63,992 nt of DNA, filler included, from Diploschistes diacapsis (GCA_023645945.1; 5 parts of 5 records of this genome joined end to end with filler, not necessarily neighbours in it), one strand, 5' to 3'; positions 5,496 through 52,571 are shown, counted from the first letter of the whole stretch. A program made the numbers and translations. Notes: generated from the sequence alone by a model not told the origin.

Positions 5496-8400
5496 CTATG
5501 GCCCGGATATTAGTTCGGCTAACTTTCCACCCACCTTCAGCCCGTGTCTTCCTTCAAAGATTTCTACCTCCACCGTGTCAAGTGCAACATAATGGATGAT
5601 TTGAACTTTCTGTGCTTGACCGAAACGCATTGCCCGTCCGATTGCCTGCACGTAGGCAGCTTTCGACGCTTCTTCGTTTCCCGCCAGTACTGGTGTAGCG
5701 AACATGACAATATGGACGTTGGTGAGGTTGTGGCCTGCGGCTGCAGGACTCAAAGGATCCACAATCAGAACCCTAATCCCTCCTTTTTCCGTACAAGGAA
5801 CCGTACGGAAGACTGTCATGACACTCGTGTGCCTGTCAGGATCCTTGACATATCTGCAGCTAATTCCCGCTTCCTCAACAGCGAATTGTAGTGCTTCTGC
5901 CATTTTTTTGAACTGGCAAAACAGAAGGACTTGCTCGTTCTTCTCCAGTTTCCTGATCCTTTCTACAATACTACCGGTTTTCGGCGAGTCTGTTCTATGC
6001 ACAACATTCCCAATCTTTGGTCCGATAACGTAGTTTGTTGCGATTGTCGCTGCGTTGCAGAAAGCTGAGCATCTATCCTCTTTACGCTGCACGGCAAGGC
6101 AATCTGAGCACGAAACATGGCCGCATTGTTGGTTGATGGCCAATTTCGCGGTCTCCGTGATTGTATGCTGGCAATGGAGACCAAGTCTCGGATCGGAAGC
6201 TTCCGGAAAGACGCCTGAGGTCATGGCCATTGTGATGGTCGTTTGAAGTGCTTTAAGGAAGCGCACCGCCCTGATGGCCCCAATGAGAGACTTGGTGAGT
6301 CTGAGGATGGACTGCAGAACTTCTTTAACCATCTCACTCTCGTCCGCCAAAGCTGAATGTTGGTCGAAGTTCCTTATATGCTCGCCGCTGTCTGTCAAGC
6401 TGTGAATGCGTCCTGCGCCCCTGTTACCGCTGGTACGATCACTCAATGCGCAAATAGCCTGCAGAGCAGCATCATCATGCGCGCGCCGGGTTTCTTTAAT
6501 CATCTCGCTTCCGTTCAACAAAGCGGAATGTTGGATGAAATCCCTTATATGCTCGCCGGTATCTGTCAACCTTCCATTTCGTACTGCATCCTTGTTACCG
6601 ATGGTACGATCATTAAATGCGCAAATAGCCTGCAACGCAGCACGATCACGCGCGCGCCGGATTTCTGTTGCCTGGTACTGGTCCTGCATTGAACCGATCG
6701 CAAGTGACAACACCGTGCATTGTGGAGCATCTGTGAGAATGCGCTTCTTCAAGCCTTGGAAAACCTCGAGCGCACACAAGTCACCGCAATATTTGTCGGC
6801 ATCGGGTCGGAAAATGGCATCGCAACGTTTGTATACAGAGTGCCATGTTGATTGCAGAATCTTAGCTTTTGTAGCAGGGCTACTTGAAGCAATGAGACTA
6901 GCGTTCCAGACTCGATAGTCATTGGCTTTTCGAAGCTTCTGCAGCATTGTCTCTGTCAGAGAAGCACAATCAGCTTCCCTATCCTGGATCACGGATGCTA
7001 AACTTGGTGTTGGTGCATTGCAAGAACTTCCGGGCGTTGTCACAAGCCTGGTGGATCTCTGATGAGAGAATGCTGCCTCGATCAATATCTGATGATGAGA
7101 TTCAGCTTTCGTAAGTGCGCTTGTAAGTCGCCTATTGCGATCATGATCGGTTCGTCCGTCCGCAATCACCCTCGAACGCTCTGTGGTCACAAGCCTTAAT
7201 TGCGATTGTAGCTCAGTATAAAGAGCCATGTGTAGGCTCGACATGACCACTGGTTCGGCGTTGATCGAGCTAGCAATAGTGAATCCCAATGCGGTATTCT
7301 TCCGCGCATAGGTATTCAAAAAATTCTGAGCAGCGATATGCCGATGCTGATGCCACGCGGGACTGTGCATCGCATTTGCGGCCTCAAATTCCTCAACACG
7401 GGTCCTGCTCTTCTTCATCTCTTTCGCGTTGCGCTTGTCGGTGTACTGTTCGGAACTATCCAAGGAACCTAAATACACACCGATTACGGATGCAAGTCGT
7501 TGAACATCCGCGAAATCCCGAATCTTTGGCGTTCCAGACAAAAGCCAGGTCGAGAGAGATGCAATGCACCTAATGCTCAAGGTGTCATAATCACCGAGGT
7601 AGGATTGTTCATCGATAATTTTTCGATGGAAGCGGAAAAGGCCAAGCGTAGGGAATTTAACGTCTAGAAAATCCTTTATATCATCTAAATCATCGAAACC
7701 ACCTAGCCTTCCGATGCTCTGATCCCTAAAGTCCAGTGATGGTTTGCCTTCACGATCTTGCTTCCCTTTGCGCTTCCGGTTGGCGACAAATTGCCGTCCT
7801 GTCAGGCGCTTTGAAGGCTCCACATAGTAGAGGGCGGAATCATCGTTGAAGTTTGCGATCTGATTTCGCAGTCTGTCGGAATACCCTTGAAACGAGCTTG
7901 TGGTTTTCATGTGTTCAACATTTAAAGCAGTCCTTTTCGTTGCTTCACCACACCACGTACTATATTCACGTAGGCTCTTAAAAGATGGCGGCGGTGGCAG
8001 ACCTGCCATGATAGCACACCGGTTTTTATATTTCGGCGTTCTATCGTGACGCAGGAAACTTGAAGAGACCAGTACAATGTCAGCTTGAAGAATCGCACGG
8101 ACATTTTGCTGCATGAGCTGTTGTGGTCTCGATACTTTCACAATCATACAGTCCGGCCAAAACTTCTTGATTTCACCCTCCCACTGGTTCAGAAGCAGGG
8201 ATGGTACGATAATCAGCGTGGCTTTAGCAGGAATCAGCGAGGTTGGGACTTTGAGATCGTTTTGGGCTTCTTCGAGCGTGTCACGGATCAACGCCAACAT
8301 AGTGATGGTTTTTCCGTAGCCGACATCGTCTGCAGCGATACCACCGCGTACGAAGCAGTCGCGAAGCGCTCGTGCTTCGAGCCTCCAGTCCAGATGTTTG

Positions 8401-11400
8401 GAAGTCGATTCTTCTACTATGACTTCTTGGAATGCAAACGAGTTCTCACAGTCCCTCGCCCGCATCCACTGCAAGGAACGCTCCTGTTCAGGCCTGAGTC
8501 GATAATTCGTTCCGGGAAAGCTGAAGGATCGGCGGCCATCCGATTCGTTGCTCCCAATGGTGAACACTGGAAACTTTTGGTATGCAGAGGTAGAACAACC
8601 CGTCAACAATCTCCAAGAAACTCTAATATGTCCTTTGTATATGTCGACCGGCGAGGTGAGAAGCCTTGTAGTTGCACGATGAACTAAAGCTTGTGCGTTC
8701 ACTGCAATGGCAATCTCTTTCATTCCATCAGCGCTAATAGGCGATAACTCTATAGCGAAGGGCACCGGCCGATCTCTTATCTGGGATTCGTATGAAGAGG
8801 CTTGCCTTGGATCCTCAAACGGTGCGAGGCGGTTAGGACCCTTCCCTCTCTTCGGAGGAATGGTTCTCCACTTGATCTGAGGCCTACTAGGCGCGCAAGT
8901 GGAACAACCCTCCGGCGGTGCAGACAATTTCATCAACATCCACTTCGCCGCATCTTTCAGCACTGGGTCCAACAACTTCATTAGCCACGTAAGATTCATG
9001 GCCATTCCGATTTGGTTTCTTTCGGTAATGCTGCAGGCGTGATGGGAACGACGGCCGTCAGGGTTGGGACCATCCCACGGGATTTGTTTTCTAAAGATAA
9101 TGTTGAGAGCACTTTGGCAGCTGTCCTGCGGTTCTGTCCAGAAACAAGTTTTACTCACACCTCGCAACGGAAGTTCGGCAGTAGTATACATTGTGGATGC
9201 TTGGAGGCGACCTTCGCAAGGATGCCAATGTCCCAGTACAATAACGTCGACTGGTTGCTCTTTTAAATTGCTGGGCCGCCACTGGCTTGGTGCCAGTTCT
9301 GGTGCTCCCTTATACTGTTTGCAATGCATAGGCTTCTCCCCATGTTTGATCTGTGCGCTCTTCAAAACCCTTTGCGTAGAACCTTCCTTCGTCCTTTTGC
9401 TTCCACCTCTCTTGATATCTAGTGCCTTATCAGTTAGTGCGCAACGCACAATCTGCGCAAGCTCGCCTCTATATTCCCCCGAGCTTAACCTGATATGGTC
9501 ATTGGCGATCACAAAAACATCGGATTCTGGGGGGCCGGTTCTTGCAGGATCCAGGAACAGGAATACGGCTTGCCTACCATTGTCGGTGCGACTGTGCATC
9601 TCTTTTTTGTGGAGAGAACCGTTTGCAGTTCCACAAAATGGCAAAGCCTTGTAGGTTCCTTCTAGCAATGAAACCATATCGTTCTTTGATCGACCTCGGA
9701 AGCGAAGATTGATCTTGCTCCAGACACGCTCATTCTTGTATTTCCGATGTGCGAGACCTAATCGTGACCTCCATGATGGCATAAGGTAGCCGACACCGGT
9801 GATCAAAGCTGGCAGTCGAATTCGTCGCGGAACGCGTACTTCCCATTGTCCATCTAGAAGAGCACCCAATGCGCCAGTTCGCACTGTACATCTTCCGACT
9901 GGATGACAGAGCCATGAACACAGCTCGGAATTAGTGGTGCGATTTCGATCAAATTTGATAAATAATAGCCACTCCACGCTGTTGGGCCGGAATATAAGCT
10001 GTAGAACTTGACCAGAGGACTCGTAGGTGATAATCCAGTAGCTAGCGTGATTGATGTCCTTGAAATAAAGAACTTGCCCCAATGCTTCTTTCACTATTGT
10101 AACAAAAGAATCGTAGGTCGTCCTGTCTGCATCCGCCTCGCGCCGCACAGCTTGCTCAAACGAGCCAGGAGACAGGCTCAGCATCAAATTGGGGGGAAGC
10201 GCGTTACCGATCATGCTCTTAAACTCAATGGGGTTATCGCGCTGTGCGTCCGAGGAGTATAGAGGAAGAAAATGTCTTGGGTTGCCGGAGCAACCTGAAC
10301 ACATCTGGACCAGGCATTCGATGCACACCAATAGAGGAGGCAGTTCTTTTGGGCTGCCACGTTCACACCAGCATACGGATTTACTACTGTTCGCCAGCTC
10401 GACCAGTTTTGGCATTGAATATTGGCAGTCCGATTTGGCACTGAGTCTGGTAGTTCTCATCTCAAGTTCCCGGACCTGTCGCGCCTGCTCATTTTCATCC
10501 CTATCATTTAGCTCAACGCCTCTACTGCCAGAGAACTCGGTTCCAGCAACTATCAAAGCCGCAATAAGAGCCGCCGCGATGACTGTGGTCGACATTGCAT
10601 TGCCCGCCAAATCTTTCAGCTGTTTATGTGTTTCGCCAGCCAATACAATCCGATTGACCGGTAGGCCTTGCAGGGCCAGTGCCTCTAGACCATGGAGAGG
10701 TCCACCACGAGTGCTGAGAAAAGGGAGGCCGTTCGGCGTAAGGCAGCCAATTACTCCTAATCTGCTTGATTCGAGATGACGATCAATGTTCTGGGAAACA
10801 TTGGGGATATGCACCTTGTACTCGAAGTCATCGCCTTTCATAGCATGGGTGAGCATAGTCATGTCCAAGCAGTCCTTGACCCGGTCGCTCTGATCATGAA
10901 TCCATTCTCGGTTGGCGTATATGGGGGGTTCAAGTTTTGCGCGCGCCCATCCCGTATAGGGAACTGCTTTACCGAGGGCGAGTCTTTTCCTTTCACTAAT
11001 GTGCCGAACCTCGCATACTTCCCAGTTCGTTGGCTTCTTGATCTGAAAAGAAGACTCGTCGTCTATACTCAGCATCTGCATAGCCCGTTGCAAGGCTGGG
11101 TGGTCAGGATCTAGAAGGAAGTCCTCAACTGAACAACGGAGGGGCATTTTGAGCTTCTCCATCAAACCTGCCCAACCTTCAACCTTGGCTTGTGCCACGG
11201 ATTTGATAAGTTTGCCAGTAGACTTGAATAGCTCTCGGTCTATGCAAATCAAGTAGCCACGCTGACGAGTCTGCGGAAGGAGGTAATTCTTCGTGTCCGC
11301 TTTATAGTGACGGCTTGCGTAGCCGATGAAGTCAAAATATTTTCTGATTCTTTCCCAGGGCGCGCCCACGATGTTTTCCAGGATAATCGTCTTGGGGCGG

Positions 11401-11988
11401 AATCTCTTCGCATACTCGTGAATGGCTGCGAATGTGACTGAGGACTCTCCTGCGTCACTGCTTTCCTCTCCATTCCTTTTCTTCTCAAGAATGTTTTGGA
11501 GCGTCTTCTTATGCGTATTCAGGTTAGAGAAATCCACGCAAGCAAAACCTGCAACCAGGATGTCTATCTTGCCATTGGCTGGCAATTCTGCCTTAGCCCC
11601 GTAAACAGTGGTTCTATGTAGCTGTTAGTATTGGAGTTTGTCCAGGGATGTTCTAGACAAAGAAATATGAGGTAGTGGAAACGAACCCTGAGCCCTGGCT
11701 CAACTCGGTAATATCCCTAAATATTATTTCAGGGTGGAAGTTTCTCTCTATAAAGGCCTGTTTGAAAGGCACTATCTCGGCCGAAAATAGATGCTCGATT
11801 ACCAGGTTCATGCCCTTGTCCGCCAGTTCCTCCTTGATCATCTCCAGAGCGAATATGGGAGCCTCTGTGCCAGAACACATTGTAGCAATTGATACCCTTC
11901 TGGTTCGCAGGAGATTATCAAAGACATTTGAAAGCCCAAGACCCATGGCACACGAGACGAACTCTGCGAATATGCTGGGAAGAGCCAT
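5496..11988 (-). CDS. DNMT5: DNMT5-type C5 cytosine DNA methyltransferase fused to a SNF2 ATPase/helicase and a degenerate RING finger (~2139 aa, 2 exons)
   Basis: MTase motifs: ATMCSGTEAP (I), AGFACVDFS (IV), LENI (VI), PQTRQRGY (VIII), LAGNAMS (X). SNF2 motifs: ADDVGYGKT, IIDEQ, LSGTP, QAIGRAMRFGQ. RING remnant CGHVSCSDC. Intron 11614-11686 (GTTCGT...CTAAC...TAG) joins the ORFs in frame. The start codon is uncertain. Confidence 0.9.
6321..6665 (-). repeat. 171-bp (57-aa) tandem duplication within the DNMT5 CDS
   Basis: EIRRARDRAALQAICAFNDRTIGNKD...EMIK and ETRRAHDDAALQAICALSDRTSGNRG...EMVK. DNA anchors are exactly 171 nt apart (6321/6492 and 6481/6652). Confidence 0.92.
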
Positions 11989-13057: not shown

Positions 13058-13157
13058 NNNNNNNNNNNNNNNNNNNNNNNNNNNNNNNNNNNNNNNNNNN
13101 NTTAATTAATTAANNNNNNNNNNNNNNNNNNNNNNNNNNNNNNNNNNNNNNNNNNNN
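13058..13157. other. Artificial contig-joining linker
   Basis: N44-TTAATTAATTAA-N44, which has stops in all six frames. Confidence 0.98.
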
Positions 13158-14185: not shown

Positions 14186-15670
14186 CTACGCTGCAAAGAT
14201 TCTAACGCTCAAATCGACGCTGCCCGTCGCAATCACGCACCTAATCGTTTCTTTCGCGCCGCCACCAGGATCATCCTTTTTCGCCGCCCCGTTCACCTCG
14301 CCGTTGGCCGTCGGCCCCTTTGTTGCGCTCGGCGCCCACCGCATGCAGCTAACGAAGTGGTCGTGCGCCTCGTCGATGGTCTTCACGCACTTGCACTCCT
14401 GCGTCAGGTCCCAGCAGCGTATCGTCTTGTCGTCGCTGGAACTGAGCAGGTATTTGCCTCCCGGATGCCAGACGAGAGCTCGGACCCAATTGTCGTGGCC
14501 AACGAGCGTCTTGATGACCGTCCCCCGCGAGTCCCAGACCTTGATGCTCTTGTCCCGGGAGCCCGTAGCTAGGAACTCGCCGGAGCTGCTGGCCGGAGGC
14601 GGCTTCCGTAGCCCTGCCAAGGCGGCCAGATGTGGATATGCGGCTGGTATTGCGAGCGCGCAGCATTCGATGACGTGCTCGTGCCCGAGAAACGTCCCTT
14701 TCACCTCACCCGTCGATGCGTCCCACATGCGCGCCGTTTGGTCGTTGCCCGCAGACAGAAGCCATCGGCCGTCAAAGCTAGGGCATACGTCCCGGACCCA
14801 GTCAACATGGCTGCGGAACGTTTTGACGCAGTATCCCGTGGACACGTCCCAAATCTTCAGGCTCTTGTCTCGCGACGCAGACACTAGAAGATTGCCTGAT
14901 GCTGGTGCGCCCGCTGCCCCGGACGGTATGAAGCGCACGGCGGAGACGGAGTGGTCGTGGCCCGGCAGCGTCCGGATGTTCTTGTACTCGTCGCTCGGAT
15001 CCCAGAGCTTGATCGTGAGGTCGGACGAGCAGGACGCAAGCAGGGTCCCGCCCCTGGGCCCGCCGTAGTCCACGTCCAGTACTGCTTTTGTATGGCCTTT
15101 GACTGTTCGCTCGAGCTCGCCCAGTTCCCAGTCCCAAATCTTAATAGTCGTGTCTTCCGAGCCAGAGGCCAGCGACGAAAATATAGGATGAAACGCGACG
15201 CAAGTAACGGGTAGTCGATGGGAGGTAAGGGAATGCCGCGCCGGCGCTCGCGGCAGCCAGGTCAGCGGGTCTTGGTTCCGTCGCGCAAGCGACGTTGGCG
15301 TGGCAGAGTCCAATTCGGCTTGCAGGGCAGTGTTGCGATTCTCGAGTTCCATAATCTTGAGAATGATAAGCATGCGGACCACGTGGGCGGAGGCCCGCGG
15401 CGCTCCAGCACGAACCTTCTTCTGCAACCTGACCACGCTGGTCCACTTCTTCTCCAAAAGGCCCTCGTATTTCCTGCTAGTGGCGTCATCGAAACCATCG
15501 CCGAGACCCAGTTCCTGTTTCAATGCCGTAGCGCTCTCTGGGTGGCTAGTAGCGCTCAGATATGCTACGATGGCTTTGTGGCTGGTTGCTTTGTTAGAGA
15601 ATCGCTTCTTTATCGGCGCATCCGGTCCTCACAGTTCTTCTGCCTGGCGGGACGTCAAGAGCGAGCTCAT
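14186..15670 (-). CDS. nudF: LIS1/Pac1 nuclear distribution WD40 protein, 3 exons
   Basis: [21 protein letters not shown] (LisH), [20 protein letters not shown] and WD40 repeats. Introns 15582-15632 and 15356-15415. Confidence 0.95.
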
Positions 15671-18974: not shown

Positions 18975-20818
18975 ATGAATCAGGCCTCAGACTTTGCTTC
19001 AACCCGCCGAAAGAACCCCACTTCGAGGAAACCGCAAGGCCTGTTGCCTAAGCAAGCTACTAAATCGTCTACAAGGATAGCTGAGCGAGCGGCTCAGAAA
19101 AGTGTTAGCCAGAATCAAACACCTGCCACTGCAGAAACAAAAACTTCGGCGCCGGGATACAAACTGAGAAATACCGCAAGTCGAATTGCGAGAAGCTCCA
19201 AGAATAAAGAGTCTCAGAAGCCGAAGGCTACCCAACGAAGATCGAGAACTGCAAGACCCAGACAGCCGGCGGAGAAGGCTGCTGGGACAGGAGGCTCTGC
19301 CACTAAGGTAAGGCATTTTCCCGCTAGTTGACTCTGTATTAACACGGCTAGGTCTCCAAGTTCGATACCTGGATCAAGGAACTAGAGCCTGGGAAACCTC
19401 CAGCTCGTCCTCCACGCAAGCCAAAGGACACGCTAAATATATCAGGTTCTTTCTCCAGAACAGGCTCCGGATGCGCCACCACACAGTCCTCTTCGACAAT
19501 GACTGCACGGTCAGTAAAGACGACTTCGAAAATGACTGCTAGCAACCTCATGAACCATGGAATCTTGGTAGAACACGACAAGACCCATCCGGATAAACTC
19601 AAGCAGGATCTCAAGACGAGGCTGGTAACAAGGATTCCGCGAGAGCCTGCTCAAACCTTGGAGCCATTGATTGAAGCCCTAAAGAAAGCCATTCCGAGCA
19701 ATTCCAATGATTTGAAAGAACGCGTCTATTCATGGCTAGATGAATTGCGATATCAGCTGGACGAATGCGCTTGCCTGACTTTCCACCCATTCACTCATCA
19801 ACGCTACTTCAAGTACCAGCTCGAGAAATGCAAGGCGAGGAACGAGCATTTCCTGCAGAGAACTGTGATGATGAGCATATTCCAACCGTATTGGCTTCCA
19901 AGAACTTTTGACTGGAACGTAGAAGGGCAATGGCAACATGACAAGGGAGCTGGGCCCTTTGCCTCCTCAAGTCAAAAAGGAGCCTTAACAAAGGCCCAGG
20001 AAAAGCTCGGCTCAATACCTCGCCCCAAACCTGATATGGCTTTTGCCTTCAGTCGTGAAACTTTCATGAGCCCAACAGAAGAGGTACGACTTCCGATGGA
20101 TCTCAGATTGGCCATGAAGCCAGACGACAGCAATCAGGTTTTCCCTTTTCTATTCATAGAAGTCAAGAAAGGCTACATTGGTATTGAAGAAGCAAAGTTG
20201 AAGAACCTTAATAACGCTGCTCGAGCCTTGTACAACATCCAACGATGGTTCAAGAAAGCCGAAGACGACGACGGTAGCCAAGACTGGAAAGCGTCTTTTC
20301 TAGACATACGGGTTTTCAGCTTCGCTTTCAACGCAGACAATCTCGTGGTGAGAATGCATCGAGCTGAGCCTGAGTCCCTGTCCCAGGACCCTCTATTCTA
20401 TTTCGAGGAATTGTTTTCTCAGAAGCCTTACACGAGAAATCAAATATGTACCCTTTTCAACAACATTCTGAACGATTATGCTGCTAACGATCTCCGCACC
20501 TCTCTAGAGGCTGTCTTCCAAGCCGTCTTCAACAGCATCGGAGCGACAAGGGACCGGAGTAGCCAAGTAAGGGAACGGGCGACCAGTGCCGGGGAGGATG
20601 ATAGTGGTAATGCTGACGAGGACGACTATTATCTTCATGATAGTGACGATGCAGACAATGACAGTAATAGCGAGGGCGGAGTCTTTTCTTCATTTCCAGG
20701 GCCTGGTGGAAGGAACAGTAGCGTGCAAACGAAGCGCAAGGCGGCCCAGCGAGCTAGCGGCGCTCCAGGAACAAAACGAGCGAAGTCGCTGCGCTCAGCT
20801 CGGAATTCCAAAGATTGA
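18975..20818 (+). CDS. Hypothetical protein with a basic low-complexity N-terminus and a PD-(D/E)XK restriction-endonuclease-like domain, 2 exons
   Basis: Intron 19308-19351 (GTAAGG...TTAAC...TAG) joins ORFs 18975 and 19499 in frame. Motif PKPDMAFAF...FPFLFIEVK...KNLNNAARAL. The tail is acidic, then basic and NLS-like. Confidence 0.6.
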
Positions 20819-26203: not shown

Positions 26204-26303
26204 NNNNNNNNNNNNNNNNNNNNNNNNNNNNNNNNNNNNNNNNNNNNTTAATTAATTAANNNNNNNNNNNNNNNNNNNNNNNNNNNNNNNNNNNNNNNNN
26301 NNN
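26204..26303. other. Artificial contig-joining linker
   Basis: N44-TTAATTAATTAA-N44. Confidence 0.98.
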
Positions 26304-39342: not shown

Positions 39343-39442
39343 NNNNNNNNNNNNNNNNNNNNNNNNNNNNNNNNNNNNNNNNNNNNTTAATTAATTAANN
39401 NNNNNNNNNNNNNNNNNNNNNNNNNNNNNNNNNNNNNNNNNN
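39343..39442. other. Artificial contig-joining linker
   Basis: N44-TTAATTAATTAA-N44. Confidence 0.98.
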
Positions 39443-40425: not shown

Positions 40426-40817
40426 CCTGTTCAACTTGTTCCAACGTTATCTGATGTGGTGATTGAATCATGCGGTCTTGAGCTATTACCAGCGAAATGA
40501 AGCAGGTTGGTGACGTTTGACTGATGGCAGGAGCGCTTGTGGCCATCTACTCGCAAGTGTGCCTTCCACAAGCTCAGGTGAGGCAGTGACTGCGCACAGT
40601 GTTGGAACCTGCGTTGCGATAGGCAGTCGAGGTAAGACGCGTCGTTGTCTTCTCCCACCGAGTATTCTAGATATCTTTCTTTTCCTTGTTCCTCGCGAGG
40701 TTCATCGACATCCATTGCTCATTCTTTTGGCTCAATACTAACCCAGCAGCTTTCGCTTATTTCTATGCTTCGACACCTCCAGCAGCCTTTCTTTTGTCTT
40801 AGTTGGAGGTTCCGCCT

Positions 40818-43514
40818 ATGGCGAGCTCAGCATCGAGCTGCTCATTCCTTGCCACTGACGAAATCTATCCGCCGAGGGCTGCCTTTGATCGAGATCTGAA
40901 TACTAATCTTAAACCTGATATACCTCCACGCAAATCATCGCGCCGGTATGCTATTAGAACAACCCGGTCGGGCAACTCACTCCGTGGCGAAATCCGTACG
41001 GTACCGTCTCTTATACTGTCGAAGCGATCCAATGTATCTGAATCCAAAACTTTCCTCAAGTCGAGGAACTCACCTCCCGGTGTCAAGGCCAAACCATCGA
41101 GCTCCTCGCGTCGATCTGAGTGGAACCCACAGAAGCGACCGGCGGAACTTGATCTCTCTAAATCTGGAGATGCCCCATTCCCAAGCCCTCCACCAAGGTT
41201 TGTTTGCGGTGCGCAAACGCCTGATGTGCAAGCTTCTGAAGCGGTAGAGGCATTCCCGTTCCCGCTATCCCCAAAACCATTGGTATCCTCAGGCCTTCTT
41301 ACACCAACAAAACGCAGAGCATTAAGTGCAGGAGCTTCTCCAGAGTATCAACCGAGCACTTCAGATCGTTTCATTCCCTCCAGGAGTCGAGGAGACGATC
41401 TTACCAGGACATATAAAATAAGCAAGAGCCCGCAGGATCTGTCTCCAGAGGAGCGTTTGGTTCGCACCGACGGTGCGAATCCTGATCCGTTTACTGCTCG
41501 AAGGATTACTCCGACAGGACAACCTGCACGCAACGGCGGCCCCCGGCCTCTGCGCTCTACTACGTCCCTTCCTCCCCGTAACCCTAGCGGAGTGCAGAAT
41601 AGAGTCATCAGCGCAGGTGGTGTTTGGAACGTTGGTGGTTCGGGTCCAGTACAGCAACGCCCGGTAGCAGGTGTACCAAACGGTCGTGGTGGTCTCCTCG
41701 GAAGCGGTACTAATGCGCCAATGTTCTCGTCGACCTTTTTCAAGTCGGAAACGCCGCATGAAAGTCAGGAAAGATTCGAAGGGCGACTTGCTATCGCATT
41801 AGATCTCGACAGGACTTCCCGTGTCTTCAATTTCTCACACTCAAAAAAGGGTCCATCTCCAACGCCAAAGGCTTCTCCTCAGTGTCCGGGCACTATCTGG
41901 AAAGACGGCAAATGGCTCATTACGAAGTCTGATAAAGGTATGTCTGGCTTTCGGGCAATTTTGATCGAGGGAAGGTCGAATCTAGCTAACAAGCGTTGTG
42001 CAGGGGCAAAGAATGCAAAAAGCGAGCCAAGGGCTGTGCCATCGACACCTTTCAGATAAGTTCCGATAGCCGTCGAATATTCTTCAAAGCTGAATTGTAA
42101 AACAGTGCTCGATGCCCCGACCTTGAGAGACGACTTCTATTGCACCGTACTCGCTTATTGTCCCGTCCTCCGGGTTCTGGCCGTGGGGCTCAGTAACCGC
42201 GTGTACCTCTGGTCAGAATCCCACGGCGTCCGATACCCTCCACGAGCCGACGACGACATTAGAGACATCCACGTTACCACCATGGACTTTTCCTCCGCGC
42301 TAGGCGCATGCAGTATCCTCGCCATTGGACGAAGCAATGGAAAGCTTAATCTTTGGTCGCCCCATGAGCCGATGGATAGATTGCAGCATCCGTTCCCGAA
42401 AGCAATTGCTTGTGTTCGCTTCAAGCCAGTACCGACCCGACGGTATTCGGAGCGCCAGTGCGCCACAATCTCAACAGAAGAGCTCCTAGTGGGTAACGAG
42501 GCCGGAGATGTTTACTACTATTCCATCGAGTGGCCCAATCCCGATGCCAACGGGCAAAACTCAGCGATTATTTTTCTGCTGGCCAAGATCGACATCCATA
42601 AGCAACAAATTTGTGGCATAGCATGGTCTCCGGATGGAGAATACTTCGCTACTGGCGGTAATGATAATGCTTGCCTACTATTCTCGGTGCGGGACATCCT
42701 ACAAGACTTGCCCCATCAATCTCGAAATGCTCTGCTGATCTTACCCATGACGCCACCTACCACTCCGCCCATGAACGCTTTGGCTCCTCGCTTTGTCCCC
42801 AATGAGACATTACACTACACTCTCAATAGCAGAGCGGAGGGCAGTGGATCCTTCGACCACAATACCCCGCCCCGACAGTATTTTCGTTCTATACGATCCA
42901 GCCAAGCCCGCAACCGCCGTTCTCTCATAATCACCGGAGGACGCGAGCGACATAGATGGCCCCACTCGGCCGCCGTGAAGGCCATTGCATTCTGTCCCTG
43001 GCAACGGGGGTTAATTGCCACTGGAGGCGGCTCAAACGACCGAGCAATCCATTTCTTTCACACGTGGTCCGGCGCCTGTCTTGCTACCATCAACGTCCAG
43101 GCTCAAGTTACCTCCCTCATATGGTCGAAAACGAGGAGAGAAATTGCTGCAACCTTTGGCTATGCCCAGCCCGAACATCCGTATCGCATCGCCGTCTTCT
43201 CCTGGCCGGACTGTAAGCAAGTGGTTTCGATTCCGTGGGCGGGCGAAATGCGCGCCCTCTACGCCATTGCCTACCCTGGCGGTCCGAACGAGACGGGCAA
43301 ATGCAAGAAGGAGAGCGAGGGCGGCAGATGGTGGAGCAGGACGGCCGATGAAGGGTGCATCGTTGTCGCGGGCAGCGACGAGAGCGTAAAGTTCCATGAG
43401 ATCTGGAGTGGCAGCGGGACGGGCATGGGCAATAAGAGCGGAGGGCTTGGCTGGAGTGAAATCCTGGAGGGGCTGGAGGGCGTGGATGGCGACTGGGGAG
43501 AAGTCATACGCTAA
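40818..43514 (+). CDS. AMA1: APC/C activator of the Cdc20/Fizzy family, probably meiosis-specific Ama1 type
   Basis: C-box DRFIP, TPFR|VLDAPTLRDDFY, WD40 repeats (ATGGND; AAVKAIAFCPWQRGLIATGGGSND) and a C-terminal IR tail (EVIR). Introns 41938-42003 (GT-AG) and 42056-42103 (AT-AC). The Ama1 subfamily call is inferred from divergence and insertions. Confidence 0.8.
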
Positions 43515-44345: not shown

Positions 44346-44643
44346 ATGGTAAGTGCTTTCTTATTTTAAATTCGAGTTTCTAACGAACCTTGACAGCCTC
44401 ACAAGCCCTTCCAAGAATCACCGCCCCCCGTCACCGACGACATGGGTCAGCTCCGTACAGATCCTTCTCGGCTTCTCTGCAGCATCGATCGCTTCCGAAG
44501 CCATCCGCGACCAATCCGGCCTTCCGCCCGGCGAGGCATTCATGTCCAGGGGCACCCACGCCGACTTCGAGATGCACCTCATGTGCGGCAAGAAGTTCTA
44601 CCTCTACAAGCATCGGGACTTTTGCTCGCCCTGTTATTGTTAA
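44346..44643 (+). CDS. Small orphan family, copy 1 (~70 aa; exons 44346-48, 44397-44445, 44483-44643)
   Basis: ATG|GTAAGT...CTAAC...CAG|PHKPFQ. Downstream EAFMSRGTHADFE resembles EGFLIRRGDHPDWE of copy 3. Confidence 0.5.
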
Positions 44644-44886
44644 GATTAAGTCCAAGAGTCGCGTCTTGGAGCCGGATCTCAGGTTGTTGATTCTGGTAGA
44701 CTCGCTGTGTAATTCCTCGTGGTGGCGGAGTTGGTTGTGGTGAAGGTTTTTGTATGGATCTAAGTAAACGGTTTGCCGTATTCAAAGTGAGGACAAAAGC
44801 GGTGCTTTTGTTCCAAATGACTATATCTTTTGTGCTGTACGCGAGAGAAAAGGTGTTGAGTGCAGGGTACGCATAGATTTGATGAC

Positions 44887-45413
44887 ATGGTAAGTACATA
44901 GGTGACCCCTTCCAGTTCCCTGATGATCTCGCTAGGCACGATATGCTACGTCGCCCAAGTGTCGCTTGGGAAGGGATGGGGGAAATCCGAGCCGCTCCCA
45001 ATGAGTTTAATAGACCGGTTTTGGATTCTCCGATAGACAAGACCTGGAGGGACTTTGTACGGAAAGAGATTGTGGCGATACTTTGCTTCCCACCGCTGTT
45101 AGACATCGCCTCAGTCGCAAAGGAGCGGGGAGGGATTGCTATTGTTATTCATTGCTGCATGCGGCGACTCGAACAGGCGAGGGAAGTTGCGCATGTGGGC
45201 TCCTTTGAAGAAGTTTTAAATGCAGTGAGGAAACGGCGAGAGGTAATATTGGACGCGGACCAGTGGCTAAGTTATGAGACGCCTTTGCGGTCAGAGATGT
45301 ATAGTTTCCTACTGGGGTTGATATTTCTATACACTCCTACAGCATTAAATTTAACCCTCATCCTAATATCTAATTTTCTACGCCTCTTACAAACTAGGCG
45401 ATTATCTGTATAA
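44887..45413 (+). pseudogene. Small orphan family, copy 2 (ATG exon out of frame with the body ORF)
   Basis: ATG|GTAAGT at 44887. Body LRRPS...WRDFVRKEIVAI...VAKER...SFEEVLNAVRKR matches the family pattern. It could instead start at its own ATG at 44943. Confidence 0.4.
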
Positions 45414-45492
45414 GTTGTTTACTTTGTTCCAGAGACAACGAATCCGCCTTTTTTAGCTTTTCCTCGAATAACCTCGGAAAAAAGGATCTACA

Positions 45493-45963
45493 ATGGTAAG
45501 TGCTGTCCCAGACCTGTATCTCCAAGTCTCTCCAGCTCACTCAAATCCAGCCTCGGAAGCCTTTCAAGCCATATGGTCTGTCAGAACTCGGAAATCTTTC
45601 GTGCGGTGCGCTGCAACCAGGGTTCACCGATTGTTGCTTCCAAAAACGGGTGACCATCATCATCGATATCGGTGAAGTACTAGCAATCGCACCTCTCTGC
45701 TCGACGCAGGTGACGTGGTCATTGCAAAGTCCCGGTACCAGTATCTGGCTCTGATCGAAGGATTTTTGATTCGCCGCGGCGACCATCCGGACTGGGAGGA
45801 GTTCCACAGGAGCAACAAGCTGGAAGATATACTGGAGACAATTCAAGCTAGAATGCCGGGGCTACATTCAAGCTATCACGCTGCTGAAAAACGAGGTTGG
45901 ATCGCCCGTTTGTCGAGCAGGCCAGGTAGGAGCCAACCGCCGATTGTAGAAGTCCCTAGATAG
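45493..45963 (+). CDS. Small orphan family, copy 3 (~125 aa; exons 45493-95, 45551-45671, 45710-45963)
   Basis: ATG|GTAAGT...CAG|PRKPFK and VIAKSRYQYLAL...GDHP...KLEDILETIQARM. The second intron is weak. Confidence 0.55.
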
Positions 45964-46303
45964 CTCGATGGGGTCTGAAGATCGCTGAAATTGTGTTGCA
46001 CTTACTATGGAGGATCGAGGACAGAAGCAGAGTCGGTGTCGGTAGACTACCATGCAACAGGTACTATCAGGTCACAAGAAGGTCATGCTATTCTTCATAC
46101 TTAGTTCAAAGATTACGGGTAAAAACTTAGAAACCTATGAAGGTGTGTGTAAAGGCTTGTGCACACGGCTTGACCCGGCTATATTTGCGAATCCTCGTAT
46201 ATATTGATAGCCATCAATGTTTTCCATCTTTCTTTTCTCAGAGTCCAGCATTATTATGATAAACAAGGGCACATGGACGTTAGTCCATAATCTGTCCACT
46301 ATC

Positions 46304-46678
46304 ATGGCAAGTGATTAACGCTGCAGATTTTAGAACATGACGCTGGCTAATTCGAACACGGGCTCGAAAACCTCTCCAATATTTTCCATCTGTCAAGCCT
46401 CGCCGGTTTTCCCACCATCTTTACAGGATGCAGAATCAACACGCTTCCAGGACCTGAGCTTCGGGGCTTACGTGCTTTGATACTCGTTCCGACGAAATGT
46501 TGAGGAAGTTTAGTGCTCGATACCAACTCTCAGTATTCAAGGCTATGCATAGGCAAAGTCGGTGCTCACTGTATCGCTCGCTATGATTAAGGTGGAGTTT
46601 GCCAGGCTGATGCTTGCTTTGAGCTTCGGAGGGGGGTCCAATCTAGAGGAGCTGCTCGAGTGATCAAAACCTCGCTAG
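46304..46678 (+). pseudogene. Small orphan family, copy 4 (degenerate)
   Basis: ATG|GCAAGT...GCTAAT...CGG|ARKPL. After frameshifts: NIFHLSSL, CIGKVGAHCIARYD*, SNLEELLE*. Confidence 0.5.
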
Positions 46679-47105
46679 AGAGAAGAGTCAAGTTATTCAC
46701 AGTTGCTTCTCCACTAGACTAAGATACAAGATTGGGGGGAGTTATTTGGATGCATGACGAAGTGTTTAGGGAGGTTGTCGCCCAAAGATCCCTTGTTTGA
46801 GGGGCAAGGTGATGGAGTTTTGACTATTTGACAACCCAGGCTGATAGAAGAGCATGTGTTCAAAGGTACAGGAGAGTTGGGATCGATTCTGCACGGTTTG
46901 CGCTTCAACACATGCCGGAGATGGCATCTAAGAGTCAAAACATCTCTAGTGACTTCCCCTTCATGGTGTGCGACCGACTCAAATGTATACATGAAGAGCT
47001 CTATGTTTCTTTTTTCCCATCCAGTGTTTACACTTATCTGAAACAGACCACAAGTCATTTCACTTCATGCTCTGCCAGTACCTTCATCGACCCCAGTATC
47101 TGAAC

Positions 47106-47685
47106 ATGGTGGGTACTGCACATACCCTGAAGGCCCGATCATCTAATCTTCTCCTGGACTCCAAAACCACTCGACTGTTTGGATTTCCAGGCAATATTCA
47201 AATGCAAGGATACAGTACCACCGTAGGGCGTCGCCACTCCACAGTGTCTATTTAGATTTAATCAGCTGGCGGAGTATCGGGATTTTTCTCGTCTCCCAAA
47301 GACAGTGGTGGTCATTTGAGTTCGGGCAAAACTTGATAATGATGATACACTCATCATTATCAAAGAGGACGTCGAGTATATCGCTGTACATGATTCCCGT
47401 GATCGTTTCAGCGGTGATGTTCCATATATGGAGGGGAATAGGGGTCGGTCATACTTAGGAGAAATGTTGAAGAGGGTTGGCGAGAGAATGTCTCCAAGGA
47501 CAGGACATGCTCGGAGCGTGCAGAAGTTTGGAAGCTCTTACAGAGCTCGACGAGGAAAGCGGAGCAATGAACAGGGGCTTTTAAGAATACAAGGCTCTAG
47601 CAGATCAATAGGCAGAGGCACTGAGGGAGAAGACATGTCGGAGACAGCAATTTGGAGAATAATGGGCGAAGAGGTGCTGTATTAG
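47106..47685 (+). pseudogene. Small orphan family, copy 5 (broken acceptor, two in-frame stops)
   Basis: ATG|GTGGGT...CTAAT...TGG|TPKPL, with stops at 47224 and 47317. EYIAVHD..SGDVPYME..YLGEMLKRVGERM..QKFG aligns without gaps to copy 3. Confidence 0.55.
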
Positions 47686-48295
47686 CTTGACTAGATGCGA
47701 CTTGCATTATTTTGAGGCCGGGGTTCCTGCGTCCTGCTTGCATGAGATCAAATACCGATTTAAAGAGCCGATTAGATGGATGTTACTGTTCATTGGAGAC
47801 ATGGCGAGATATGAGAGCACGAGTCCCCTCCATGTGAACATGCCAATAAAAGCAAGATGTCTCAATTATGTTCCTTAAAGAAGAAGAATAGGGTATGAAA
47901 TTTCCCTCGACTACTTTCAGAACTTTGGAGACCGCACAACAGCACTTGGCTCAGGAAAGGATTCTCGGTCTTTCCGACATAAGTGAACTGACAACAAATA
48001 GGACCTCCACAGACAACATGGTTCATTATAGCATTACACAAAGTGACTGAGCGATTTATTACTTCCTTCGAAGCCCAAGTCACAGAGTGTCACCGTCTCT
48101 GAAACAAAATTTTGATAGTCTCCCACCAGGTTGGCAATCAACTCCATCTCTCTGAAGTCCTTCAAGATACCCTGACAATCACGTCAATCTGAACACTTGT
48201 GCTCCAGCATAAGCTATCTCATTAAACATCAACAATAACCCCGGATTAGCAGAAAGCGAAAGCTGGCTGCATGTCCTGAGCAGTCTATTGCGAGG

Positions 48296-48488
48296 ATGGT
48301 ATTCTGAACAAAGGAAACGAAGGTGATGGAAAAGCCAACTTGTAGTATTGCAGAAGAACAAGAAGGCTTTCAAAGAGCTCGAGATGGGAGCCATACAGGC
48401 GGATGGTGGGAAGAAGCCTCTTTCTTGCGGTGGGCAGGAGCAACTGACCATTCTGGAGCAATATACACTGTACCACCTTCAACTGTGA
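48296..48488 (+). pseudogene. Small orphan family, copy 6 (short or truncated, ~45 aa)
   Basis: ATG|GTATTC...CAG|KNKKAFKELE, nearly identical to the N-terminus of copy 8. Confidence 0.45.
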
Positions 48489-48975
48489 TGCAACGGCACC
48501 GTCGTAGTATTTCAGTGCTCTACACGGCCCCGTAACTGTTTCTTACGGGTATCGAGGTTCTTTTTTCCGATCGCTCATGGTATAGATAAGCACTAACAGA
48601 ATAGCTTTTTGTTTGCGCCAGGGAAATGGTCAAGCATGGGGTTTGTAGTACGTGCCTTGTTGCTGTGGGTTCTAGTCTTTACCAAATCAGATATGATGAC
48701 ACTTCTTATCTTTTTCTAAGGGATAATACGTTCTACTAGTACGCCACCGAGTTTAATTTGCATCAATGCTTTCAACAGAAGACCTTTCGATTGGCAGGAA
48801 ATGTTAGAGCTGCTTGAAGATCTAACATGTACACGGCGATACTTCATGGCATGAGCATGGAGATCAATATATCTGTTCAACTTTTCTTTCAATTGCCCAC
48901 AATTTATACGCAAGATCTTCCTTGGACCATTCCATTGCGGACCTGCAAGTCCTATGCTTCACTCGCTACTGGAAA

Positions 48976-49392
48976 ATGGTGAGCGCCTGGTTGCCCTATC
49001 GAGCCCTGATTACTAGTTCGGTCCAACTGACATTTTCCCAGCCGGAACGACCTTTTAATGCTTTCGAATTCTCGAGCTTTTTCGAAGATGATGCTGAAGC
49101 TATGTTCTTGGATGGACTCCAAGCCCACCATCATATGGCGACGAAGCTTGGCCTACAATCGAACCCATATTGGGATTCTATCGAGGTGCTAGCAGCCATA
49201 AAGATACCCTCACGTGGTGCTAGTATCTATGTTGTCATACATCGAACCAACTACTGGGCTTACATGGGATATCCTACTCCCTCCGGCTTTAAGCTACATA
49301 AGGTAAAGAGCAAAAACCTGACAGAAGCTATGGAGGAAATCAAGAAAGGTTACAAACGTCTAGTAATTGGATCTGATGAGCGGTTTGAATGA
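48976..49392 (+). CDS. Small orphan family, copy 7 (~117 aa, apparently intact)
   Basis: ATG|GTGAGC...CTGAC...CAG|PERPFNAFEFSSF, then IYVVIHRTNYWAY...NLTEAMEEIKKG. The ORF is uninterrupted. Confidence 0.6.
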   Translation: MVSAWLPYRALITSSVQLTFSQPERPFNAFEFSSFFEDDAEAMFLDGLQAHHHMATKLGLQSNPYWDSIEVLAAIKIPSRGASIYVVIHRTNYWAYMGYPTPSGFKLHKVKSKNLTEAMEEIKKGYKRLVIGSDERFE

Positions 49393-50265
49393 AAGAAGGA
49401 ACCGGTTAAATAGTGGTTGGGTATATCACATACTTCCGGCAAGATGGATTGTTCATAACCTTCAAGGTGCCCATAGGAGCCGGAACGGGCACGTGGGTTC
49501 GAAAGTTACCAAGCCAGACTCTATTCAACTTTGTCTTCGAATGGAGAGCTTGAACATGTGGGCAAGTTGGGGCGTTACTTACTAAATTAGATAGATGACT
49601 CAAGACATCAGACTTGTCTCGTATACTATGCACATCAAAACTGGGCTGCCCTGGAGTACATGAGTGAACGTCACTATAGGAATGCTACTAGTGTAAACAT
49701 AACGGTGCAGCCAGGGCACCCACGTCTAACTAGCCATCCCTAGGCGGTACAACTTGTTGGTTACGTCTGATAGCGAAGGCGGAGAGGCGAAGTGCAAGAC
49801 TATGCTATAGCACTTCATTGAACTCTTTCCCGGCAAATCCTTCAATGTAAACCTATTCTCCCTGCTCTTGGTGATACAGTACACTCGTCGGAGTTCATTC
49901 CAGAACCTGTCCACCCCAATCTTATCGCACTGTTCGGGTAACAGTCTCACCCCGTCTTTTAGAAAGACTTTTTTTACGATGATATGATTGATTGTGCCAG
50001 CTGAAGTTCGGTTACCATACTATCTTTACACACCATCATTGGCTGTAGAACTCCCACTTCGGAAGAAACCTGATTCGAATGACACTTCAATTGCGACACA
50101 GTGTCCTCGCACAGTATTGGTACCCCAATGGTAAGTACCCCGTACCTTTGTCAACCTGTCAAGGCGTTGTCGTCGTCAATGTCGAGTGCCCGACCGTTGT
50201 CGCCGAAAGCAGTTAGCCGCTTGAGGATTAGTCCAGGTTGACAAGCCTCTGCCATGAACCCAAAG

Positions 50266-50730
50266 ATGGTACCCATATCCTGTCCTCTAAATCAACTATC
50301 CTGACGACATCTAGCCTAACAAGAAAGCATTCCAAGAGCTCGACTGCAGCGGAATCACGATGCTCGCTGATCCAGATGGCTTTCATAAGTTTATAAAAGG
50401 CTATGTATGGCCTTCGAGATCATAACGCCGCACCTTGTCTCTAAGAATACGGAGGCTTGCTGAGGTATTGGTATGGTTCCAAGGCAGGGATAGTGCAGGT
50501 CTTGAACATGCACTGTGGTGAAATGCGCCTGAGATGAAGGCGAAATGCCAGAAGAGGAAAAGGGGGAGGTGGTCACGTGCGTGGCGCTGCGGCTGACTAA
50601 AGCTAAGCCTCTTTTGGATGAGCAAGCTGAAAGACTCGACGTTGTCAAGGCCAACCTCGCTTTACTGTATGTATGCTTGTCGATGTTGCATCTCAATTGC
50701 CATCAGATTGTTGCAGTTGAAGGGTTGTGA
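50266..50730 (+). pseudogene. Small orphan family, copy 8 (premature stops; alternative ATG|GTAAGT at 50128)
   Basis: ATG|GTACCC...CTGAC...TAG|PNKKAFQELD, with a stop after about 36 codons. The 3' extent is uncertain. Confidence 0.4.
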
Positions 50731-50937
50731 ATTCTGGCATTGGCAAGGTTGCATGCAGTTGATAGTTAGTTACATGCTACACGCATCGCAACACTGTACG
50801 TTTCACGCGGCGAAACGATGAGGATCGTGATGAGAATCCGATGAAAATACAATTTAATTGGTGTGACATAGGCGAGGCATATATGGAAACGATATTTGTT
50901 CCACTGCGAGCGATTGAGGGCGTTATAACTAGAGATC

Positions 50938-52471
50938 ATGTCTCAAGATGTCGGGGCAGATAAACGGCTAGAGCATTATATCAAAGATCCAATACGGGCA
51001 TCCTTGCGCGCGACCATTAGAGAAAAGAAAACCCATTTCAAACTCCCAACGGATAACTCACACGAGTATCTGTTCAACCTGAGTACGTTGGACGTGTGGG
51101 AAGATGGCAACTCCACTACGGCCGACCACGTGGAGTACATCCCATCGCCGCATTTACCGGACGAGATATTCAAGTCCAACACCTCGCGCAAACGTTTAAA
51201 GGTACGCCTGCTCGTCACCTATCCCCGCTTCTCCGTCTGGGATCCCAATTACGATGGCGCGAAGCAAGTGCACTACCTTCCCTTCATGCCCCACGACATG
51301 TTCGACCTGATAGAGGGCTACCACCTCCCGCACGAATGGCTTCAACTCCGCTATCTCTCCCCCGAGGTGGGCAACTACACGCGCAAGACGGACTGGGGCA
51401 AATCGACGCGCCCCCACCGCATCGGCATCGTCATCCACTTTCCGTTCTCCCTCCTTCCCGCACGGCGCTACGACTACCTGGAAGACCTCAAGGAGCACAC
51501 GCCGGACCACCACGACCGCCCGTCCTACCATCCCTTCCGCGACGATCTCTTCCTATGGAACCTCGCCATGTCCTATTCCTTCGACTCCGGGCAGACCCGA
51601 GGCCTGCTGGACGGCGTTCCGGCCCGCGCCCAGCTGGACATCCGCGCGCGCATGTCGCCCGAAACCTCGCCATGGCTGGATCACCCGTTGCACCTCCCCA
51701 AGGTGCTCCTGGACATCCACGTCGACCACATAGCCTGGGAAGTCAACCGCCTCGTCGGCGAGACCGACGACCTCGAGGACTTCTCCAAGAACAGCAAAAA
51801 CAAGGCGCTCGAGGACACCGACAGCATCATCTCCCAGCTCTCCTACATCTCCCGCAGCCTCGACTTCCTCGAGAACCTCACAAACTTTCTGCTCGAGACC
51901 CTCGATTTCTTCGCCGTCACGCTGCCCGAGGACGACGCTTCCCTCGCCGCCTCCGCCCACGCCCACGGAAGAGGCAACGGGCTGGCGCATCAAACCTTCA
52001 TCCGCAACACGCACTACCAGATGAAGGAGGACCTCACCAACACGCTGTCGCAGCTGAGGAACAACATCCAGACCTGCGACTACCTCCAGTCCCGCACGGC
52101 CGACTCCCTGAACTACATCTCGGCCCTGTACGACGACGACCAGGCCACCATCTCCGCCCGCGACGCCCGCTCGAACTCCACCATGAGCATCCTGCAGATG
52201 ATCTTCCTCCCCGCCACCGCCGTGGCTGCCATCTGCTCCATGGGCATCTTCAACTGGCAGGCGCCCGCTCCCCCCACGGGCGTCGGCGTGAGTCCGTACA
52301 TCTGGATATACTGGGTCGTCTCCGTTCTCGCCACCCTGCTCACGATATTGGTGTGGGCCTTTTGGATACGGAGGCAGGGCAGGAGGCAGAGGCCGGAAGA
52401 GGTGGAGGAGAGGGACAAGCTGACGGAGCAGAGGTACAGGGAGCGGGTGGCGAGGGAGAGGGAGTGGGTGG
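50938..52471 (+). CDS. CorA-like membrane protein (fungal family with two C-terminal TM helices), 3'-truncated
   Basis: WLDHPLHLP, coiled helices, then ARDARSNSTMSILQMIFLPATAVAAICSMGIF and IWIYWVVSVLATLLTILVW. It lacks the canonical GMN motif. Confidence 0.75.
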
Positions 52472-52571
52472 NNNNNNNNNNNNNNNNNNNNNNNNNNNNN
52501 NNNNNNNNNNNNNNNTTAATTAATTAANNNNNNNNNNNNNNNNNNNNNNNNNNNNNNNNNNNNNNNNNNNN
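52472..52571. other. Artificial contig-joining linker
   Basis: N44-TTAATTAATTAA-N44. Confidence 0.98.

Follow-up and report, generated by a model that had tools for sequence, protein, structure and literature searches.

The window analysed here, a stretch of 63,992 nucleotides (nt) of DNA from Diploschistes diacapsis, contains a 7.3 kb gap between a CDC20-like gene and a CorA-like gene, and about 6.4 kb of this gap (44346..50730, plus strand) is occupied by an array of eight small gene copies, c1 to c8 (Table 1). The copies have a common start, complete in five of them, which consists of an ATG, a predicted phase-0 intron of 46-63 nt and a peptide of the type P-x-K/R-P/K-F/A. The repeated structure is real and non-random. 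A preliminary description of this DNA had proposed about eight paralogs of about 120 amino acids (aa); a same-strand tandem family is indeed present, but only about three of its members have usable reading frames. The copies c1, c3 and c7 look intact, and c2, c4, c5, c6 and c8 are truncated, frameshifted or stopped.

Table 1. Coordinates of the array copies, of the pattern matches and of other features of the window
Feature	Position	Strand	Details or basis
c1	44346..44643	+	ATG 44346-48; 48-nt intron 44349-44396 (GTAAGT...CTAAC...CAG)
c2	44887..45413	+	ATG-GTAAGT 44887, CTGAT branch, acceptor AG 44934-35, 46-nt intron
c3	45493..45963	+	ATG 45493-95; 55-nt intron 45496-45550 (GTAAGT...CAG)
c4 (relic)	46304..46660	+	ATG-GCAAGT, CTAAT branch, acceptor lost (CGG at 46359-61)
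c5 (pseudogene-like)	47106..47685	+	ATG-GTGGGT, CTAAT branch, acceptor lost (TGG at 47155-57)
c6	48296..48488	+	ATG-GTATTC (weak donor), 55-nt intron, acceptor CAG 48351-53
c7	48976..49392	+	ATG 48976-78; 63-nt intron 48979-49041 (GTGAGC...CTGAC...CAG); exon 49042-49392
c8	50128..50730	+	ATG-GTAAGT 50128 (184-nt intron) or ATG-GTACCC 50266 (46 nt)
Composite-pattern matches	44346, 45493, 48296, 48976, 50266	+	pattern scan
DNA-methylase/SNF2 protein	5499-11624	-	Pfam
TOG-domain protein	24309	+	Pfam
Glucosidase I, GH63	27549	+	Pfam
NAD kinase	38259	+	Pfam
CDC20/Fizzy-type WD40 protein	open reading frames 40803-43514	+	Pfam
CorA-like protein	50929-52527	+	Pfam
Isocitrate/isopropylmalate dehydrogenase	52929	-	Pfam
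Cyclin	58284	+	Pfam

Pattern statistics show that the start module is concentrated in the array. An ATG joined directly to a donor (ATGGTRWGY) occurs nine times in the window against 2.82 expected, a count that none of 100 shuffles attained, and six of the nine lie on the plus strand within 44346-50136. A composite pattern, in which ATG and G[TC] open an AG-terminated intron of 35-130 nt and the peptide [PATK]x[KR]K?[PA][FL] comes after it, has five matches when both strands of the 64 kb window (128 kb) are searched, all of them on the plus strand. In first-order Markov simulations of the window, the pattern matched 0.85 times on average and 3 times at most, and 5 matches were reached in 0/200. 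This composite pattern was defined post hoc, when the copies were already known; the clustering, in which all five matches are confined to 6 kb of one strand, is the fairer and stronger evidence. A start-codon-intron pattern free of the peptide motif (ATG, GTRHGY donor, CTRAY branch, YAG acceptor) has four matches on the plus strand of the window, three of which are in the array, and none on the minus strand. The same pattern occurs 13 times in 1.71 Mb of strand from 80 other fungal loci (0.76 per 100 kb), and so the three matches in the array compare with about 0.05 expected, an approximately 60-fold enrichment over fungal control DNA. The sole match outside the array, at 23373 on the plus strand (ATG-GTGTGC, 64 nt), is located about 0.9 kb upstream of the open reading frame (ORF) with the TOG domain, and its ATG may be the true start of that gene. 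The peptide 'MPRKKPLNSF' at 17371 on the plus strand was rejected as a ninth copy, since it lacks an intron and is located antisense to a minus-strand ORF of 127 codons.

Donor, branch and acceptor consensus sequences are present and in frame in the predicted introns of c1, c3, c6, c7 and c8. In c1, c2 and c7 the acceptor is preceded, at a distance of 4-22 nt, by a CTRAY branch site, and such sites are visible too in c4, c5 and c8. The start modules listed in the preliminary description are in place and non-random, but the acceptor AG is absent from those at 46304 (CGG) and 47106 (TGG), where the intron persists only as a relic. The codons of the shared peptide differ synonymously or conservatively among the copies (CCT/CCG/CCC/CCA; AAG/AAA/CGA; TTC/TTT/CTC), and the DNA flanking them is unalignable, which points to a constraint acting on the translated N-terminus rather than on bare DNA. 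Only three copy-linked DNA repeats are found: an 18-nt repeat of c1 and c3 covering the ATG and donor, a 26-nt repeat (D2) over the peptide of c6 and c8 with 88% identity (23/26 nt), and an 18-nt family over a helix motif (c4, c5). A common upstream promoter motif of the eight starts is not above chance, as the best one is found in 8/8 regions and equally in 17/60 random sets.

The only clean model among the eight copies is c7, whose exon (PERPFNAFEF...) has 116 codons and a TGA, is in phase with the acceptor and gives a protein of 117 aa. Its intron is a multiple of three and stop-free, and the reading from the same ATG is open without splicing too, so that retention of the intron in a c7 transcript would not prevent the body from being encoded. 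The c1 exon from 44397 encodes PHKPFQESPPPVTDDM, and either a 37-nt second intron (44446-44482) or a frameshift is needed to enter the frame ASIASE...CSPCYC, which stops at 44641-43; the modelled protein has 70 aa. The c3 exon 45551-45671 encodes PRKPFKPYGLSELGNLSCG..., and a putative 38-nt second intron (45672-45709) would join PRKPFKPYGLSELG... to the exon 45710-45963, which encodes DVVIAKSRYQYLAL...KLEDILETIQARM...; the modelled protein has 125 aa, and a frameshift is the alternative to the 38-nt intron.

The other copies are damaged in different ways. The copy at 44887, for which a body beginning LRRPS had been described, has a complete 46-nt intron, but this intron is out of frame with the 175-codon ORF (44886-45413) that encodes LRRPS. 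The ORF has an internal Met at 44943 (MLRRPSVAW...), and c2 is probably a frameshifted copy or a copy with an altered start. In c4, ARKPLQYF... is read from 46362, a stop is found at 46455 and frameshifts lie further on; a relic of the EMLRKF helix is located at 46494 and NLEELLE at about 46640 in a different frame, and DNA repeat D1 connects 46494, 46759 and 47461. A single 175-codon frame of c5 (47158-47685; TPKPLD...IIIKEDVEYIAV...YLGEMLKRVGERM...) is interrupted by exactly two stops (TAG 47224-26 and TGA 47317-19), and together with the lost acceptor this is decay consistent with a pseudogene. The c6 reading after the acceptor (KNKKAFKELEMG...) extends for 44 codons to a stop, and so c6 is either truncated or extended by unmodelled exons. 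The start of c8 had been placed at 50266, but the donor there is GTACCC, and the ATG 138 nt upstream at 50128 has the better donor; both options use the same CTGAC branch and the acceptor TAG at 50312-14. After this acceptor, PNKKAFQELDCSG... is read for 36 codons as far as the stop at 50423-25, and a separate open frame at 50533-50730 (MPEEEKGEVVTCVALRL...LLDEQAERL...) may be the displaced C-terminal half of c8, with an inferred link between the two halves.

A codon-usage model was trained on 12 long ORFs of the window, and these genes score 0.07-0.24 bits per codon. The codon log-likelihood of c1 is 0.21 and 0.11 bits per codon in its two exon frames, compared with -0.05 in the unspliced continuation. 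The other scores are 0.10 for exon 3 of c3, 0.17 for c6, 0.096 for c7, 0.07 for the exon and 0.11 for the tail of c8, and 0.03 for both c2 and c5. Hence, c1, c3 and c7, at 0.10-0.21 bits per codon, fall inside the range of the real genes of the window. When ranked among the 119 ORFs that are 40 aa or longer and free of stops on either strand of the array region, c7 is second, c3 third and c1 (44353-44640) fourth, and these are the best three on the plus strand.

The bodies downstream of the start module appear to have diverged almost beyond detection, and their relatedness mostly cannot be shown. Smith-Waterman scores of the 28 pairs of the eight copies were compared with 1000 shuffles, and c6-c8 is the only significant pair, its score being reached by 0/1000 shuffles; c3-c5 (25/1000) and c3-c7 (31/1000) are marginal or weak. 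Comparing the copies piece by piece led to an equivalent result. The proposed relatedness of the bodies was therefore borne out by this all-against-all test for c6-c8 only. The c3 and c5 bodies align without gaps over 61 columns with 24% identity, in agreement with the gap-free alignment over about 50 aa reported previously. Searches with phmmer against 1922 six-frame ORFs of the window retrieved c6 and c8 as reciprocal best non-self matches (E 0.3-0.5) and placed c3b and c5b at rank 2-3 for each other (E 1.5-3.3), and no further copy retrieved another. A C-terminal helix had been thought to be common to several bodies. A position-specific score for this motif, trained on c3 and c5 alone, reached P=0.020 in c2, with the match GSFEEVLNAVRKRR at a distance of 311 nt from the ATG, as well as P=0.024 in c4, with the match TRSDEMLRKFSARY, and was not significant in c1, c6, c7 and c8. 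In c2, c3, c5, c7 and c8, the distance between the ATG and the best match is 311-343 nt, and this position argues weakly for a common layout.

Pfam scans assigned none of the five exon translations to a family at E<=1. When the 92 ORFs of the array region with 45 aa or more, from either strand, were scanned, one chance row resulted (E=0.041, 14.7 bits against a cutoff of 28). HET, HeLo, NLR, toxin-like, transposase, reverse transcriptase and Ribosomal_L39 domains are absent from those scans. These results agree with the earlier statement that the copies carry no recognisable domain, and the translations, read directly, have no hydrophobic N-terminal stretch, which likewise upholds the reported lack of a signal peptide. 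Neither c7 nor c3b+c5b has a match among PDB sequences. Transposon-like repeats were not found in the array (longest direct repeat 26 nt, no terminal repeats), and the signature of repeat-induced point mutation (RIP) is absent, the TpA/ApT ratio being 0.79 in the array and 0.76 in the window and (CpA+TpG)/(ApC+GpT) being 1.24 in both. The Pfam, PDB, repeat and RIP scans thus gave no match to a characterised family or a transposon ORF.

Structure prediction by AlphaFold2 from the single c7 sequence yielded a best model, one of five, with a predicted local distance difference test (pLDDT) score of 65.8 and a predicted template modelling (pTM) score of 0.59. The model suggests a compact alpha/beta fold in which short helices precede a four-stranded antiparallel sheet, with a further helix at the C-terminus. 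The c5 prediction, made with X at its two stops, has a pLDDT of 33.7 and is unusable. The structural comparison recommended for c7 gave nothing at E<=0.001 in Foldseek, where the best row (E 0.043) is a designed 'hallucinated' protein. VIA-align gave a best Z of 7.0 and 15 chains with Z of at least 5, all within the stated background of the tool, 7-8, and an atlas search with c7 gave no usable match. The c7 model has a layout similar to UBC/UEV/RWD-like folds, bacterial immunity proteins and capping-protein domains at Z 4.3-7.0, values at or below that background, and the alignments have 1-13% sequence identity, so that they give no basis for membership in any of these groups.

To follow the locus in other fungi, 80 metagenome loci (L001-L080) were found through the flanking CDC20/Fizzy-type gene, with a best identity of 59%. 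None of the 80 has a CorA-like, NAD-kinase or acyltransferase neighbour at a filter of 1e-5, and none has an array-like start module, 22 loose pattern rows having poor donors and unrelated peptides. Searches of the copies against these loci by tblastn gave no match better than E=0.015. The comparison with related fungi, which had been put forward as a check, thus recovered neither the module nor the bodies, and the 80 loci are too distant to date the origin of the array. A search of the literature on start-codon-only first exons in fungi found no paper on such an array.

A Pfam scan of the long ORFs of the window indicates that the surroundings are a housekeeping region of an ascomycete-like fungus. 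The 2042-codon frame of the DNA-methylase/SNF2 protein joins a C-5 cytosine DNA methylase, SNF2 and helicase-C in a DNMT5-like architecture. The CDC20/Fizzy-type gene has an N-terminal extension of 418 codons without a Pfam match. A 480-codon WD40-repeat frame at 14189-15628 on the minus strand (WD40 E=2.6e-57, six stretches) adjoins unannotated sequence that extends to about 19 kb and includes minus-strand ORFs, and this frame could belong, as the repeat end, to a larger NLR-like gene. A 488-codon ORF at 19352-20815 on the plus strand matches DUF7924 (E=8.7e-12). Paired runs of N, 44 bases each, are found at 13058-13157, 26204-26303, 39343-39442 and 52472-52571 with a spacing of about 13.1 kb, and one pair breaks the 3' end of the CorA-like ORF.

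The array probably descends from duplications of one start-codon-intron gene. The reading favoured here, with a probability of roughly 0.55, is that of a lineage-restricted tandem birth-and-death family in which at least some copies would be live genes of this kind, as judged from the sequence. The mixture of intact-looking and decayed copies fits the birth-and-death family proposed in the preliminary description, but the homology of the bodies is statistically weak. The tandem array would have grown, through successive duplications, from a single small gene with the ATG alone as its first coding exon. About three copies, c1, c3 and c7, may still be able to yield proteins of 70-125 aa without a signal peptide, and c2, c4, c5, c6 and c8 would have been eroded by acceptor loss, frameshifts, stops and truncation in the course of birth-and-death turnover. 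The start, namely the ATG and the peptide P-x-K/R-P/K-F/A with a phase-0 intron of about 50-60 nt between them, would be kept while the bodies drift. At least c1 and c3 would require splicing of the start-codon intron for the ATG to be read in frame with the body. Once the initiator Met had been removed, the products would have a free proline at the N-terminus and a basic-Pro-aromatic motif after it, and this N-terminal motif may be a common handle for one cellular partner involved in processing, turnover or targeting, the variable alpha/beta body carrying copy-specific properties. To our knowledge, the motif fits none of the following well: Pro/N-degron recognition by GID4, X-P-K N-terminal methylation and the D-box and KEN degrons of the anaphase-promoting complex/cyclosome.

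Several observations weigh against the favoured reading. The introns and the expression of the copies are predicted from sequence only. The putative second introns of c1 (37 nt) and c3 (38 nt) are shorter than the 46-nt cutoff for fungal intron length derived in the study of start-codon introns (PMC1626468), and so the c1 and c3 models are uncertain and both copies may be frameshifted instead of spliced. The first of the 119 ORFs by codon usage is a minus-strand ORF of 66 codons (47251-47448; 10.1 bits, 0.153 per codon), which is antisense to c5 and has no Pfam match. The codon-usage test of coding is suggestive, the signal being weak in this genome. Among the bodies, 25/28 pairs are not significant in the Smith-Waterman test, and a profile built from c3 and c5, the kind of check that had been recommended, retrieves no other copy among the 1922 window ORFs. 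A phmmer search of 1.84 billion representative proteins with c7 gave 0 matches, a word-index search gave 0, and a scan of metagenome contigs confirmed 0 of 246 pattern matches. An alignment search with c3b+c5b confirmed 0/49 candidates, and the sole match of c2 is its own 156-aa ORF (P0002), predicted from a 5741-bp contig. Since c7, c3+c5 and c2 have no homologue in these searches, conservation cannot vouch for any copy. The other four c7 models are poor (pLDDT 37-52), the c7 fold may be idealised, given the designed protein in the top Foldseek row, and the c7 atlas recognition value of 1988 is under the level that most known families attain. Finally, that the N-terminal motif acts as a recognition handle common to the copies is a distinctly doubtful suggestion reached by inference.

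The weaknesses of the copies are what would be expected of a gene graveyard, where an old tandem expansion would have left dead copies only, even c1, c3 and c7 being relics that give no protein today. Five of the eight copies are visibly broken, c1 and c3 require unusually short 37-38 nt introns, no homologue or annotation stands behind any copy, and the codon signal is modest and equalled by one antisense ORF. However, under neutral decay the ATG, donor, branch, acceptor and hexapeptide should be lost no more slowly than the bodies, and five copies keep them; the motif codons vary synonymously, c7 has a complete 116-codon frame in exact phase with its acceptor, and the three best-preserved copies are the three top-scoring plus-strand ORFs. 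An array made up wholly of relics is therefore regarded as rather unlikely. It has also been considered that the module is conserved not as a protein start but as an element at the DNA or RNA level, for example as a promoter-proximal or splicing module in several copies or as a set of alternative first exons, with the downstream frames being incidental. The limitation of the conservation to the start module of about 80 nt, to the exclusion of the bodies, would suit such an element, but the variation of the motif obeys the genetic code in its third positions and conservative replacements, no module would splice to a downstream exon shared with the others, since each has an acceptor of its own at a distance of about 50 nt, and the sharing of upstream motifs is not above chance. 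These properties make an element of this kind very improbable.

Extreme divergence would also arise in a genetic-conflict array, as the preliminary description suggested, in which the paralogs act in poison and antidote, allorecognition or drive and the conflict causes the divergence. The support for this, by analogy, is the pattern of a tandem, orphan, fast-diverging set with copy turnover, to which the c7 fold comparison adds weak rows for TriTu immunity (Z 6.6), PsiB (5.7) and CdiI (4.4), all within the background band. However, there is no known incompatibility, killer or toxin domain in the 92 ORFs of the region, transmembrane or secretion features are absent, the fold matches are at noise level and the flanking genes are housekeeping genes. 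A conflict array is thus quite improbable. A chance origin, with ATG-GT sites and short peptides that merely happen to coincide in ordinary intergenic sequence, is in keeping with the non-significance of most body similarities and with the post hoc writing of the composite pattern. It is effectively refuted by the five composite matches, seen in 0/200 simulations and all confined to 6 kb of one strand of the 128 kb searched, by the approximately 60-fold enrichment of the motif-free intron pattern over 1.71 Mb of control fungal DNA and by the identity of c6 and c8 at 23/26 nt.

Start-codon introns are a described class, fungi included, and the study by Nielsen & Wernersson (2006; PMC1626468) reports that genes for short, lysine-rich proteins lacking a signal peptide are overrepresented among them, and that the class is conserved and enriched in ribosomal proteins. 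The array copies resemble start-codon-intron genes in having a predicted phase-0 intron right after the ATG and in being short, fairly lysine-rich and without a signal peptide, but differ from them in being orphan, without detectable relatives, and in tandem. The conservation that marks the class is not seen in the array, where c7, c3+c5 and c2 have 0 homologues. In yeast, the first exon of the gene for ribosomal protein L39 consists of the ATG alone, and the protein in fungi starts with M-P/A-S/A-H-K-S-F-R. This start resembles that of c1, M-P-H-K-P-F-Q, over about 5 residues only. Unlike L39, the array bodies are unrelated in length and composition, and no exon or ORF has a Ribosomal_L39 match in Pfam; by analogy, borrowing of the 5' module from an L39-like gene could be taken as a lead only.

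The wtf genes of fission yeast encode multi-exon membrane proteins, are scattered near the long terminal repeats of transposons and have a demonstrated poison-antidote action. In contrast, the predicted array products are small and soluble-looking, and the copies are strictly tandem. The two families, of which wtf is the subject of PMC5478263 and PMC9562144, are alike in being lineage-restricted, in having intact and decayed members and in diverging rapidly. The c7 protein search and the Pfam scan of the 92 ORFs revealed no sequence or domain relation to wtf.

An ATG-only exon is not new in itself; what is unusual is an orphan family that retains both this exon and a six-residue tag amid drift. 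It is highly speculative and very unlikely that the array represents an unseen class of intracellular proteins with a fixed proline tag and a hypervariable alpha/beta body, dependent on splicing in c1 and c3 and with its copy turnover driven by conflict, which would here mean poison and antidote, allorecognition or defence against a parasite. Since the first coding exon is only 3 nt long, standard gene callers can miss the family and would likely miss this array. If none of the copies is expressed, the array would be an ordinary relic of a past duplication burst. If c1, c3 and c7 are expressed, a whole family of small genes would be overlooked by standard callers, and the array would offer a compact natural example in which a tag at the N-terminus is conserved and the bodies diverge freely, of use for work on the turnover of orphan genes in fungi.

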